Shown piece after piece: positions 4,518-9,122 of a DNA stretch of 30,815 bases (its first letter is position 1; each line of letters starts with the position of its first letter). The position numbers and the translations under genes were made by a program. Below the pieces are notes generated by a model. The model did not search any database. It saw only the letters and a list, made by a program, of their open reading frames with translations, and was not told the origin of the DNA. The DNA is taken from IMG/VR virus record IMGVR_UViG_2531839668_000005; one strand, written 5' to 3'. This DNA comes from a virus (Duplodnaviria > Heunggongvirae > Uroviricota > Caudoviricetes).

Positions 4518-4943
4518 ATGAGTGCTATTAATGTGTTATCTCAGGAGGAAAAATTTATACATGTTGTTGATAAATTTATAACCCATAATCACAACGGCGT
4601 TAATAACAATGTCTTTTATAAAAAACTTTATGTTCTCTTCGCCGGATATCATCTGAAGTATTTTTATTCACGGGCGCAATATCGCAATTCGTGTTATCAC
4701 GTTGATAATATCATGCAGATGTTTATGGGTGTCGTTTCTACCCTGAAGACCCCTCTGCTCAGGCAACTCGCAAACAGTGACACATTGCTGCATTGCCTGA
4801 ATTCGCTCGTGAATTATATTTCAGGCAATCTGGATGAAGCAGAGCACATTTATGCTGATTTACTGGCACAGTATGAAAAGAAACGCATTGCACGTTCTCT
4901 GGCTTATACACCACCAGGATCCGTGGTCAGGAAAAGACTGTGA
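4518..4943 (+). CDS. hypothetical protein (141 aa from the ATG at 4518)
   Basis: GGAGG 8 nt upstream of the ATG at 4518 (the track ORF starts earlier at 4452). C-terminus ...PPGSVVRKRL matches the C-terminus of the ankyrin protein at 8169-9122. Confidence 0.5.
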   Translation: MSAINVLSQEEKFIHVVDKFITHNHNGVNNNVFYKKLYVLFAGYHLKYFYSRAQYRNSCYHVDNIMQMFMGVVSTLKTPLLRQLANSDTLLHCLNSLVNYISGNLDEAEHIYADLLAQYEKKRIARSLAYTPPGSVVRKRL

Positions 4944-5030
4944 GACATCGGAAATGCGCCGGACAAGGCAGAGTATGGCAGAGTGACATAAAAGCAGTCG
5001 TTTCCCGCAAGATATTACCGGGCATTAAAA

Positions 5031-5061
5031 AGGCAGGATCCACCGATTTGGTGTCCTGCCT
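5031..5061. terminator. bidirectional hairpin between convergent genes
   Basis: AGGCAGGA ... TCCTGCCT perfect 8-bp inverted repeat between the plus-strand gene ending 4943 and the minus-strand gene ending 5085. Confidence 0.4.
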
Positions 5062-5084
5062 GGCGGGATTATTTTATTGTGGTC

Positions 5085-5363
5085 TTACTTATCAACGACC
5101 TGCCAGCCATCATCTGTTTTGACCAGCTTGACAGCCGCTGTGCGTTTTTCGTTATCGACAACAGCTGTTACATTGCATTTATAGCTTTTATCCGATAGTT
5201 TTTCGCAGTCGTGTTTTTTGACTGATTTTAACTTCCGCAGCATGTCAGGCGTGATATCGTTTCTCGCTATGGATTTAACGATGGCATTCGTCTGCTCCAC
5301 GACCTTATTCATCGCAGTGTAAATATCCTGCTCAGACGGTTCACTGGTGCAGCCGGTCAGCAA
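5085..5363 (-). CDS. putative lipoprotein, mature domain; signal peptide lies in an adjacent frame (possible frameshift)
   Basis: ORF begins L-T-G-C (lipobox) at a TTG. An ATG at 5402-5404 encodes MKTYAFTTLIASIF then stops; adding one T to the T6 run (plus-strand A6 at 5362-5367) would give MKTYAFTTLIASIFLLTGC..., a canonical lipoprotein signal peptide. Confidence 0.5.
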   Translation of the reverse strand: MLTGCTSEPSEQDIYTAMNKVVEQTNAIVKSIARNDITPDMLRKLKSVKKHDCEKLSDKSYKCNVTAVVDNEKRTAAVKLVKTDDGWQVVDK

Positions 5364-5430
5364 AAAATGGACGCAATGAGTGTGGTAAATGCATATGTTT
5401 TCATAAAATAATCCCAGACGGTAGAGTACG

Positions 5431-6142: not shown

Positions 6143-6327
6143 GACTCCGTAGCCTGATTTAAGGTGATGTATTTTTGAACATTTTCGATGAATGAACTGC
6201 TTTAGTAAAATTGCTTGTACCGATCGATGGATCTCAGGCGATAGGTTATATCTATTATAACTAGATTATCGATCTATAAAAACGATCGATATCTTATTGA
6301 CTATCACTAAAGTATGGACTAGCTAAC

Positions 6328-7563
6328 TTATGGTGCAGGATGGTTGTTGTTTTTAAATGATTGTTCTTTATTGGTATTTGTTGTCATGGGATGACAGGGT
6401 GTCAGAATATGTAGGTGGAGGATTTGGTGGAAAGGATGTGCAGTGGCATGTAACAGAGACATGCCTCTGCGCCTGAGAAGTGCCACAATATGGACGAGCA
6501 ATACAAGCCATGAATACAGACGACGCTGGCGGGGTATCTGACGAGCTGTATTGTGCAGATTGCTCCTGAGCTGGATGATACCCACTGTCTCCTGTTGTCT
6601 TTCCAGACGAATTTTTTCTTCAAGCTGATGGATTTTCTCCAGAATCGTTTCCCGGTTTGCAGCCTGCTCTTCAGACTCGCATGATGGCACTGGCACTGGC
6701 ACTGGCACTGGCACTGGCACTGGCACTGGCGCGGTTGTAGGTTCTATTGGCCTCTGGGCTTCTTTCAGTAAACTCAGATGCTCAGGCGTAAAATCAATCA
6801 GTGCTTGCAGGGAAGACCAGCCATATTTTTTACCCAACTGAGATGCTTTAAAGGCAATACCCTGGTATTGAAATGAAAATCCACTCATTTTACCCGTAGT
6901 GGCGATATTGGGTTTGCAGGTCACTCCTTCCTGTTCCAGTAAGCGAACAAAGGTTAGTAAATCGGGATGGTGTGTTAATGCATTGTCGAGCAGGGCCTGC
7001 AACAGTGACTTAGGGCAGGGAGCTGCTGTGCGTTCTGCCATCATCAGTTCATTACGGGAAGGCTTCCTTTTATCCTGGCGGCTACTGCCGGTTACACCCG
7101 TAGTTTCGGTGAGGCCGTGTACTCTCTCCAGCTCACTGATAATCCGTGTGCCGATAAGATTTTCATTTTTCCCCAGGTACAGTTTTCCACCGACCATGTT
7201 AATACGACTTGCAATGATATGAATATGCTGCCCATCCGGATCATCGTGCATGATATAGCAGCGAAGATGGGTGTCAGTGAAGCCCATTCGGGCCATATAA
7301 TCGTCAGCGAATGCTGCCCACTGTCTGTTTGACAGTTTCTCACCCTTTGGCAGGCGAAGTGAATTATGCCAGACAGGTTTGGCGACATCGGGACGCAGCA
7401 GTCGGGTGCCTTCAAATTCACTTATAAGCTCAGCAGCAGTGCTACCCGTCATGTTGCCACCGATGACATAAGGCGTGATTTTGTGGTGAGAACCTGACTT
7501 CAGGCTATAAATAACCACACCTGTGAATTGTTTACCCCTTTTTATTTTCTGCATGCCTTTCAT
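6328..7563 (-). CDS. mobA: MobA/relaxase-family mobilization protein (C-terminal boundary uncertain)
   Basis: N-terminal region contains the relaxase histidine triad context (HDDPDGQHIHIIASRI) and an early Tyr; start overlaps the mobC stop. Includes a (Pro-Val)7 linker; sequence after the linker is low-complexity and may not all be coding. Confidence 0.7.
   Translation of the reverse strand: MKGMQKIKRGKQFTGVVIYSLKSGSHHKITPYVIGGNMTGSTAAELISEFEGTRLLRPDVAKPVWHNSLRLPKGEKLSNRQWAAFADDYMARMGFTDTHLRCYIMHDDPDGQHIHIIASRINMVGGKLYLGKNENLIGTRIISELERVHGLTETTGVTGSSRQDKRKPSRNELMMAERTAAPCPKSLLQALLDNALTHHPDLLTFVRLLEQEGVTCKPNIATTGKMSGFSFQYQGIAFKASQLGKKYGWSSLQALIDFTPEHLSLLKEAQRPIEPTTAPVPVPVPVPVPVPVPSCESEEQAANRETILEKIHQLEEKIRLERQQETVGIIQLRSNLHNTARQIPRQRRLYSWLVLLVHIVALLRRRGMSLLHATAHPFHQILHLHILTPCHPMTTNTNKEQSFKNNNHPAP
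6688..6729. repeat. (CACTGG)7 perfect hexanucleotide tandem repeat
   Basis: Seven uninterrupted CACTGG units on the plus strand; on the minus strand they encode the PVPVPVPVPVPVPV linker inside mobA. Confidence 0.95.
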
Positions 7564-7967
7564 GGGTCTGACTCCAGAAATGTTGAGGGAATAAGGTGAT
7601 CCCTGAGAGTTTTGATTTGTCTGCGCAGGGCGAAGAGTTCTGTACGGGTCAGTTCGCTGTCAGGGCTTTTGCTGTCGAGATGACTCAACAGGTAGTTTAA
7701 ATCCTGTGAAAGGCTGCCAAGTTTTATCCATGCTTCACGATTGATTTCTGGCAGAACCGGCGGGAGTTTATTCAGGGAAGCCATCCTGAGCCATTCTCCT
7801 TTTTTATACTGACCTCTTTTACTGTCGAGAATAATTAATTCTTCTTCATTTAATCTGACACTGATGCAGTGATGTCGTATTTCATTCTCAGGAAATTTGT
7901 CAGTATGGAATTTACCGCGTTTTGATACTCTGGTTATATCATCATCATTACTCATGTCACTGTTCAT
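7560..7967 (-). CDS. mobC: MobC-like relaxosome accessory protein
   Basis: 135-aa ORF directly upstream of and overlapping the relaxase gene start, the conserved mobC-mobA arrangement; ELFALRRQIKTLRDHL region is typical of the family. Confidence 0.6.
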   Translation of the reverse strand: MNSDMSNDDDITRVSKRGKFHTDKFPENEIRHHCISVRLNEEELIILDSKRGQYKKGEWLRMASLNKLPPVLPEINREAWIKLGSLSQDLNYLLSHLDSKSPDSELTRTELFALRRQIKTLRDHLIPSTFLESDP

Positions 7968-8168
7968 AGTTATCCTTTTATTTCATGTTTATTACTACAG
8001 ATAACCGATGAAATGAATAAGTCAAGTTGTTACGGGATAAATAATTTAATTATCTGGATTAAAAAAGGTATACCATTTGACAAATAGTATACCCACGAGG
8101 ACATATCAGATTAATGGTCATTAAATGAATCCTTGCAGACTAAGAAAAGGGTTGTTTACTCCAGAGTT

Positions 8169-9122
8169 TTAGAGTCTTTTTCGTACAGATGAACGGGGGA
8201 TCTCTGGCTTCATTTCTTTTAACAGGTCTTTTTTCTCTCTTGCTGCGATATAAGAAAAAATCTTATCGGAGTCAGAACGCTGTCTGAGTATATCGTCGTC
8301 CATTCGGATACCATTTCGAATGAACCATTTCACACTTTCTATGCCGGTGTAGATACCAATATGTTTATCATGATAACAATTATAAAACTGAACATGACTG
8401 ATATCGGTATATTTTTTCAGTGAGGTAAAGAAGTACTTCATGTTTTTGACATATAATGCGAAGGAACAGTGTTCAGCGATAAGGATATTACGCCCTTTTT
8501 CATGAAGCAAAGCAATTAGAGGCAAAGCCTCAGTTGAAACATGTTTAAATAATACTGGCGTGCTGTCTATTCTATCAACATGGCGTTTGAGGGCATTAAT
8601 ACTGAAATCATATATCCACCACTCGTTGTCAGTCGGAAGATCCAGCACCGCTTTGCCACCATAATCTCTGTGGTTTATGTCACACCCTTTATTTACCCAG
8701 TAATCAAAGACGTCATGATCGAGGAGGTCATAAAGAAGCGTTTGTCCTTCGTTATCTGTGCTGTGGATATCAATGCCCGCGTTTATGAGGAGTTCCGCAC
8801 AATCTATGGCGTAGCGCTGCCAGTGAAGACAGGACTGGCCTTTATTATTTTTGTGGTGAACGTTAATACCTGACTTTATCAATAGCCTCACTGCACGTGG
8901 GCTTTTTCTGCTAAACAGGGCATTATTACCATAACAATCTGTATGGTTCAGCGCTATGCCTGCTTCAATCATGGCTTTTAAAGCCCCGATACTGTCGCAA
9001 CCGAAAAGGGCGTTTTCACCGTGTTCATTAAGTGTGTTAATGTCAATGCCTGCAGCAATGCAATTCTGGACGTCTTTTTTAGTTTTGCTGTCAAATAAAT
9101 TATCTTCTGTATAGTTACTCAT
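8169..9122 (-). CDS. ankyrin-repeat protein (317 aa)
   Basis: Several repeats of the ankyrin consensus (G-x-NALF/LH...A...G...LI..GADIN), e.g. GENALFGCDSIGALKAMIEAGIALNHTD and GQSCLHWQRYAIDCAELLINAGIDIHSTD. C-terminus ...PRSSVRKRL. Confidence 0.75.
   Translation of the reverse strand: MSNYTEDNLFDSKTKKDVQNCIAAGIDINTLNEHGENALFGCDSIGALKAMIEAGIALNHTDCYGNNALFSRKSPRAVRLLIKSGINVHHKNNKGQSCLHWQRYAIDCAELLINAGIDIHSTDNEGQTLLYDLLDHDVFDYWVNKGCDINHRDYGGKAVLDLPTDNEWWIYDFSINALKRHVDRIDSTPVLFKHVSTEALPLIALLHEKGRNILIAEHCSFALYVKNMKYFFTSLKKYTDISHVQFYNCYHDKHIGIYTGIESVKWFIRNGIRMDDDILRQRSDSDKIFSYIAAREKKDLLKEMKPEIPRSSVRKRL

Follow-up and report, generated by a model that had tools for sequence, protein, structure and literature searches.

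A basic C-terminal tail shared by the proteins of an enterobacterial mobilizable island: a possible address label for conjugative export

Two dissimilar proteins with the same C-terminal tail

The stretch of DNA analysed here, referred to as the window, comprises the 30,815 nucleotides of the IMG/VR virus record IMGVR_UViG_2531839668_000005 (Caudoviricetes), and two of its genes, both belonging to what appears to be an integrative mobilizable element, encode proteins that end in the same short basic tail. The first of them, located at 4518-4943 on the plus strand, encodes a family-less, predicted all-helical protein of 141 amino acids (aa), named famA here, whose C-terminus reads YTPPGSVVRKRL, i.e., GSVVRKRL. 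The second, at 8169-9122 on the minus strand, encodes an ankyrin-repeat protein of 317 aa that terminates in EIPRSSVRKRL (RSSVRKRL when trimmed to the same length). Both termini stand as the initial annotation of the window had given them, according to the list of open reading frames (ORFs) and to the RefSeq annotation of the matching E. coli chromosome, in which the two coding sequences are called identically. The tails proper are S-V-V-R-K-R-L at 4920-4940 on the plus strand (stop codon at 4941-4943) and S-S-V-R-K-R-L at 8172-8192 on the minus strand (stop codon at 8169-8171).

The codons behind the two tails (tcc gtg gtc agg aaa aga ctg tga in famA; tca tct gta cga aaa aga ctc taa in the ankyrin gene) differ at synonymous sites, and therefore the match exists at the level of the peptide and does not reflect a DNA repeat. 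This rules out that the tails stem from a repeat, or from a terminal inverted repeat, at the borders of a mobile segment, a candidate considered since the 3' ends of both genes face each other across the relaxase region; in agreement, no inverted repeat linking these 3' ends was returned by a repeat finder. The window contains 320 stop-to-stop ORFs with a length of 40 aa or more, among which an end made of three basic residues and one hydrophobic residue is exclusive to famA and the ankyrin protein. The number of ORF pairs expected to coincide in their last five residues is 7e-4 when ORFs from 90 aa upwards are considered, and 3e-3 when the limit is lowered to 50 aa.

The shared stretch is longer than the seven residues originally reported, when the rest of the two proteins was described as dissimilar. 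That description holds for the regions upstream, which are unrelated, and does not hold for the last ~35 residues, whose alignment comprises a helix, a Pro-containing linker and the tail, with the pattern (D/E)xxI(Y/F)..(L/I)A..E(K/R)K.(I/L)...(L/M)....P....[KR][KR]R[LIM]. This module spans 4836-4940 on the plus strand in famA (terminal helix, Pro-containing linker and basic tail) and 8172-8276 on the minus strand in the ankyrin gene. A comparison of both proteins with hhalign aligned only their last 34 columns (E=0.011, with a low probability of 3.8%), and a MAFFT alignment (A3) places the ~35-aa module in the same register. A broader homology between famA and the non-ankyrin C-terminal domain of the ankyrin protein, suggested by gapped BLASTP (E=1e-4), fails beyond these residues and was rejected because the hhalign alignment stops at the last 34 columns and the predicted folds differ. 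When a profile of the 35-aa module was run against 1.84 billion representative proteins, it retrieved fragments of the famA and ankyrin families and no further family. Thus, the extended module is confined to these two families, while the bare tail is shared more widely.

The ankyrin protein, which matches the Ank repeat models and adopts the ankyrin solenoid fold (Pfam clan Ank), has a confident AlphaFold2 model (pLDDT of 90.8) in which the repeats occupy approximately residues 1-160, an alpha/beta domain follows at approximately 165-260 and a long helix extends over 285-304. Residues 305-317 are modelled as coil with pLDDT values of 54-67, versus about 90 elsewhere, so that the tail is predicted to be disordered, as expected of a terminal signal. 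The model of famA is all-helical, of low confidence and too poor to judge whether its tail is disordered. Regarding its family, sequence searches in Pfam, PADLOC, PHROGs, NCBIfam and the PDB gave no match for famA, and they were equally empty for the 122-aa and 146-aa proteins described below, precluding the assignment of any of the three to a known family.

Conservation of the tail and its presence on a relaxase

Is such a short match maintained outside the window? The database homologues form 60 clusters for famA and 78 clusters for the ankyrin protein, and the end [KR][KR]R[LIM] is found in all those with an intact C-terminus, down to 29-45% identity, so that the conservation across orthologues of both proteins, which the initial annotation had left to be checked, is upheld except in one ankyrin subfamily of 291-306 aa. 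The homologues of famA end in RKRL, RRRL or KKRL; those of the ankyrin protein in RKRL, RKRM, RRRM, KKRI, RKRI, RRRI, KRRL or KKRL, and the tail is retained even in 412-aa ankyrin paralogues with 29-31% identity (CKRRL, SKKRL). In both families, the 4-8 residues ahead of the tail vary freely. Within the famA alignment (A1), no variation is seen at R140 and L141, and the conservation of R138 and K139 reaches at least 90%; in the ankyrin protein, R316 is kept by all 19 homologues, with identities as low as 31%, and the position after it, the last one, is invariably occupied by L, I or M. The 36 genomic loci recovered through famA reach 41-47% identity (Rahnella, Erwinia, Dickeya and others), and at that distance famA ends in SRKRARL, VRVRTVRL, CVNRVRL or VRIRTFRL, i.e., in its most distant representatives the tail turns into R-x-R-x-x-R-L. 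From these variants, it follows that the constant features are the R-L-COOH end and the basic residues upstream of it. In general terms, all the tailed members bear 2-4 Arg or Lys within the last 8 residues (as in VRKRL, KRKRM, VRVRTVRL and ARKIRL), a penultimate residue that is always basic, and nearly always Arg, and a final Leu, Ile or Met. Across homologues, the tail is encoded with four Arg codons (AGG/AGA/CGA/CGT), five or six Leu codons (including CTG/CTC/CTT/TTA/TTG) and the three stop codons, and this synonymous turnover shows that selection acts on the peptide.

A search for the strict motif among the 1617 ORFs of at least 50 aa from 40 related loci yielded 49 hits. All of them correspond to famA, to ankyrin paralogues (of 314, 316, 317, 328 or 412 aa) or to a third tailed protein of 122 aa, unrelated to the other two, that ends in SEIKQNKKRL; there was no hit in the remaining ORFs of these loci, which are about 1570. 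A looser definition of the motif adds an ankyrin paralogue of 334-385 aa ending in GGRL or DRRL. Judged by these alignments, the tail is a conserved and selected C-terminal motif and not a coincidence, the option that had initially been kept in reserve.

The fourth carrier is a relaxase. In a sister clade of elements, whose MobA is 50-62% identical, the relaxase itself terminates in [KR]RKI[RH]L. Its 120 best database homologues, which come from many genera of enterobacteria and have 76-96% identity, all show RKIRL, RKIHL or RKILL as their last residues, bar one with IKIRL. The loci sampled through this tailed relaxase again contain a convergent famA gene, whose product ends in VVRASKIRL or AVRTRTVRL. 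Therefore, as far as the sequences indicate, the motif is present both on a relaxase, which is the canonical substrate class of the conjugative type IV secretion systems (T4SSs), and on the module-bound famA.

Regarding the other tailed proteins, the 122-aa protein (L004:4862-5230 and L005:204-572, both on the minus strand) is encoded directly downstream of a Gabija-like pair, composed of a GajA-like OLD-TOPRIM ATPase and a UvrD-like helicase, and near a tailed 412-aa ankyrin gene (Ank412). The Klebsiella hotspot where it lies is occupied in other strains by an element with a tailed relaxase (L050, L051). Other small islands (L043:3636-6465 and L044:2530-5347) are composed of a P4-type integrase and two ankyrin paralogues, one tailed (412 aa) and one tail-less (291-293 aa), lack mobilization genes and may represent a two-gene ankyrin system.

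The integrative mobilizable element

The positions 2800-10000 of the window are 100% identical to a chromosomal island of E. coli O157:H16 strain 98-3133, and at least 80% of this stretch is found in 58 of 5,426 complete E. coli genomes. By its gene content, the region at approximately 2900-10400 is laid out like an integrated small mobilizable replicon, i.e., an integrative mobilizable element. It includes a gene for a Rep-like helix-turn-helix (HTH) protein (2915-3478, minus strand), followed by three iteron-like direct repeats at 3920-4053 (36 nt each, 75-81% identical, with an exact spacing of 49 bp; repeat family D1), which lie between the Rep gene and famA and are probably the oriV (candidate origin of vegetative replication) of the integrated replicon. 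Between famA, a backbone gene of the mobilization module, and the relaxase gene, a conserved module at 5085-6142 (minus strand) encodes two small lipoproteins and a 91-aa zinc-ribbon membrane protein (zr91).

The relaxase, of the MobA type and 411 aa in length (6328-7563, minus strand), matches Pfam PF03432 with E=1.6e-22 and 80.7 bits, versus a cut-off of 24.6, and contains a (PV)n linker. This linker is encoded by a perfect tandem repeat of the hexanucleotide TGGCAC at 6685-6730; the homologues contain (PV)n or (PA)n runs of differing lengths, with close relatives spanning 371-394 aa, and hence the repeat appears to be length-polymorphic. Overlapping the start of the relaxase gene and conserved together with it, there is a gene of 135 codons (7560-7967, minus strand) for a putative MobC-like relaxosome accessory protein. 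It has no Pfam or NCBIfam match at E<=0.01, and owes its name to its position and to the MobC annotation of the analogous gene in related plasmids. Upstream, an alignment of six loci reveals a conserved inverted repeat at 8067-8094, between the stop codon of the ankyrin gene and the mobC promoter, the latter with a conserved TTGACT -35 box at 8020-8025. The arms of the repeat are GGGTATAC...GGTATACC, and both sides co-vary in two of the loci, L010 and L021 (AGTAAG...CTTACT). The segment at 8020-8094 is a likely candidate for the origin of transfer (oriT) together with the mob promoter. Beyond it lie the ankyrin gene and, at 9137-9577 on the minus strand, the gene for the 146-aa protein, which lacks the basic tail and usually accompanies the ankyrin gene on that side of MobC.

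The comparison of loci separates a constant unit (famA, lipoprotein, zr91, MobA and MobC) from an exchangeable backbone (Rep-HTH_36 and one integrase versus two tyrosine recombinases and a 624-aa gene) and from the genes beyond MobC, which behave as variable cargo. In Klebsiella, for example, mutS is the neighbour of the same backbone, which is accompanied there by an integrase and carries a YobI-type ATPase as its cargo instead. Whether the loci are sampled through famA or through the relaxase, famA is a fixed part of the relaxase module in every element. In the sister-clade elements (L036:5097-9868; L054:9567-14338), two consecutive tyrosine recombinases and genes of 624 and 128 aa replace Rep and the single integrase, and the cargo includes an AAA_13 ATPase (L036) or radical-SAM/HxsD genes (L054).

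Several apparent relationships of the element did not stand up. The PIME mobilizable elements constitute a different family, with IncP-like traJ/traI and trbJ/trbL genes. No plasmid copies of the element were found, the sole "plasmid" match being a 3.6-kb linear assembly fragment, and the 122-aa protein had no plasmid match either. As for the ankyrin genes on plasmids of 30-45 kb, their similarity runs through the generic repeats only.

What the tail may do

In one established class of signals for T4SS export, represented by the Arg motif of the VirB/D4 substrates, positive charges are clustered at the C-terminus, and in RSF1010 MobA the last 48 residues act as such a signal (PMC10025392); the appeal that the initial annotation made to this class is therefore well founded. 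Relaxases are the canonical substrates of these systems, and the coupling proteins recruit relaxosomes by means of signals on the relaxase and on accessory factors (PMC8406263). In addition, many proteins reach recipients through the F, pKM101 and RP4 systems, some of them with signals lying wholly in the last 50 residues (PMC11288057). The reading that we favour, with a probability of about 0.4, is that the island tail addresses its carriers to the coupling protein of the T4SS of a helper plasmid, as a signal for recruitment or translocation. All the features of the VirB/D4 Arg-motif signal that can be computed were found in it: location at the extreme C-terminus, net positive charge with several Arg among the last ~20 residues, an exposed and unstructured state (in the ankyrin protein) and presence on a relaxase (in the sister clade).

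According to this, the tail would be a short linear motif at a free C-terminus, held on a disordered linker after a terminal helix, through which the proteins of the element family would dock onto a VirD4/TraG-type coupling-protein ATPase of the helper T4SS. In the sister clade, the relaxase would carry the signal itself; in the clade of the window, with a tail-less relaxase, the signal would reside on famA and on the ankyrin cargo encoded beside the putative oriT. Then, famA could be either a relaxosome adaptor or a co-transferred accessory protein, and the ankyrin paralogues, encoded on the side of oriT away from the mob genes, could be injected into recipient bacteria along with the element, where, as diversified protein-binding scaffolds, they might neutralise recipient functions. 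In its fullest form, a portable [KR][KR]R[LIM]-COOH label would load the relaxase or famA as well as the ankyrin proteins, allowing a hitch-hiking element to inject effectors before or with its DNA and, for instance, to blunt the defences of the recipient. We consider this extended version rather unlikely; the coupling-protein binding, the translocation and the role in the recipient are all steps that we infer.

Some observations weigh against export by a helper system. In conjugative relaxases, those signals that have been mapped are mostly larger and located internally (PMC10025392), and the strictly kept hydrophobic residue at the end of the tail exceeds what a charge-based Arg motif needs. 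The relaxase of the window clade aligns with its tailed relatives up to the tail and then ends in NNNHPAP, without any basic stretch; bona fide plasmid relaxases of the wider group, such as those of pUL3AT and p12379_4, lack the tail too, as does the ankyrin subfamily of 291-306 aa (35-37% identity). Moreover, the tailed Ank412 is also encoded in tiny islands and next to a Gabija operon, in both cases away from any mob genes, which implies that the tail is not strictly tied to a cis-encoded relaxase. Lastly, no T4SS gene and no coupling-protein gene are present in the element and, being limited to the relaxase and the MobC-like gene, it must obtain its T4SS from a helper element. Consequently, of the connection with an adjacent conjugative machinery proposed in the initial annotation, the part that survives is the association of the tail with mobilization, through the tailed relaxase of the sister clade and the fixed place of famA in the relaxase module; the machinery itself is not there.

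The comparison with known systems gives an idea of where the tail would fit. The Arg-rich VirB/D4 signals of Agrobacterium VirF, VirE2, VirE3 and VirD5 and of RSF1010 MobA resemble it in their extreme C-terminal location, their hydrophilic and unstructured character and their several Arg residues, and both types are found on relaxase and non-relaxase proteins (PMC10025392). Unlike them, the island motif is shorter and sharper, with a fixed R-[LIM]-COOH end, and is carried by chromosomal islands of Enterobacterales, for which the presumed target would be a bacterial recipient. Similarly, the conjugation substrates of F/pED208, pKM101 and RP4 (PsiB, SSB, ParA/ParB and RfaH) are cytosolic proteins co-transferred with DNA, some of which have their signals, including positively charged ones, in the last 50 residues (PMC11288057; PMC8406263). 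Those substrates lack a defined common motif, whereas the island motif spans several families and is encoded by a hitch-hiking element instead of a conjugative plasmid.

The ankyrin T4SS effectors of intracellular bacteria (Legionella/Coxiella Ank proteins and Anaplasma AnkA) also combine repeats with a C-terminal signal region. However, the hosts of the islands are free-living enterobacteria, with no Dot/Icm or virulence T4SS, and the genes belong to an integrative mobilizable element. The NCBIfam models of the Dot/Icm effectors AnkY/LegA9 and AnkH/LegA3 scored 25.5 and 22.4 bits, respectively, versus a cut-off of 600 bits, which denies membership; scores so far below the cut-off reflect generic ankyrin repeats. 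With E. coli or other Enterobacterales as hosts, the eukaryote-directed, intracellular-effector context initially evoked for the ankyrin protein finds no support. The mobilization systems themselves offer another term of comparison. In R1162/RSF1010, the small accessory protein MobB is needed for the type IV transport of the relaxase and, like it, famA is a small protein of a mobilization module that could present the relaxase to the coupling protein. This would be a possible role of famA; no sequence similarity to MobB was detected (Pfam, NCBIfam), and the gene arrangement differs.

Could the tail serve a different partner? It might be a docking motif for a host hub protein, for another island-encoded protein, for DNA or for an anionic membrane, and this alternative, although somewhat doubtful, has several points in its favour. 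The persistence of the tail on Ank412 in islands without mob genes would be accommodated, basic tails often bind nucleic acids or acidic surfaces, and the element evidently uses terminal short motifs elsewhere: the window Rep-like HTH protein ends in RRRNPADGIPF, and 16 of 20 Rep homologues (examined in L006-L025) end in D(G/D/S)IPF or DGIPFD. On the other hand, in the loci examined the tail shows no co-variation with any candidate partner, binding to DNA or to a membrane leaves the invariant hydrophobic last residue unexplained, and a relaxase is the sole carrier of the tail with a known function, an indication of transfer. As an observation on the Rep protein in its own right, its end resembles the C-terminal tip of E. 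coli SSB (DDDIPF), so that the Rep tip may mimic SSB and draw SSB-binding replication proteins to the iteron origin.

The best-defined rival is a tag for proteolysis or remodelling by a host AAA+ machine, most plausibly a degron of the ClpX C-motif-2 type, whose established example is the RRKKAI end of MuA (...NRRKKAI) (PMC8138137; PMC12723719). The tail would then keep the island proteins short-lived or allow ClpX to remodel complexes such as the relaxosome. In both the MuA and the island motifs, the free C-terminus of a protein encoded by a mobile element, in MuA a DNA-processing one, is formed by a basic cluster and a hydrophobic residue at its end; the island tail is predicted to be exposed and disordered; and, since ClpX is a host protein, the tailed ankyrin genes without mob genes would be accounted for. 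Nevertheless, the match is loose: RKRL, KRRL and RKIRL resemble RRKKAI, while NGGRL and VRTVRL fit poorly, the penultimate residue is Ala in MuA and a basic, near-invariant Arg in the islands, and the distant variants (VRVRTVRL, KNGGRL) diverge even further. In addition, nothing in this explanation accounts for a relaxase, an accessory protein and several ankyrin paralogues sharing one degron. It is improbable in our opinion, although secretion, sorting and degradation, the roles contemplated at the outset, are not separable by computation. A classical monopartite nuclear localization signal, K-(K/R)-x-(K/R), was also considered and rejected: PKRKRM and PKRRRI fit it, and VRKRL, GGRKRL, VRVRTVRL, NGGRL and RKIHL do not. 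Finally, that the likeness is coincidental, or a functionless leftover of an old recombination, is hardly credible: the strictly identical part amounts to five residues and the extended module is weak by hhalign probability, but so few pairs are expected in the window, and three to four families keep the tail over a wide divergence, its codons changing synonymously, with a zero background in the remaining ORFs of the related loci.

Our search of the literature found no description of the motif or of famA. The protein-export signals of conjugative T4SSs are still poorly defined, with large internal domains in the case of relaxases and no consensus for the other substrates. If the tail does address its carriers to a helper T4SS, a motif of 4-8 residues, present on a relaxase, an accessory protein and ankyrin cargo, would constitute a directly testable minimal signal, the co-transferred proteins would become predictable from sequence, and mobilizable islands, common elements of E. 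coli, Klebsiella, Salmonella and Enterobacter that frequently include defence genes, would deliver proteins of their own into recipients. Even if it turned out to be a degron or another docking motif, the tail would still mark a control point shared by a widespread family of islands.

Neighbouring features of the window

On the minus strand, an insertion sequence of the IS3 family (orfA and orfB; 10540-11711) adjoins a truncated DUF4928 gene (10159-10431) and probably interrupts the cargo end of the element. Further along, the region at 13312-18301 (minus strand), with two adjacent ParB/RepB/Spo0J-like genes, a gene of the serine-recombinase family and an integrase-domain gene, forms a mobile module of its own that lies between the mobilizable element and a prophage. 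The latter, whose P2-like end occupies 19131-30630, encodes an integrase, a CI-like repressor, CII, Fil, a Dam methylase, a replication endonuclease and the portal protein. Just ahead of the portal gene there are a gene for a TIR-domain protein (28895-29497) and a 138-aa gene, a position that is typical of the defence cargo of P2.

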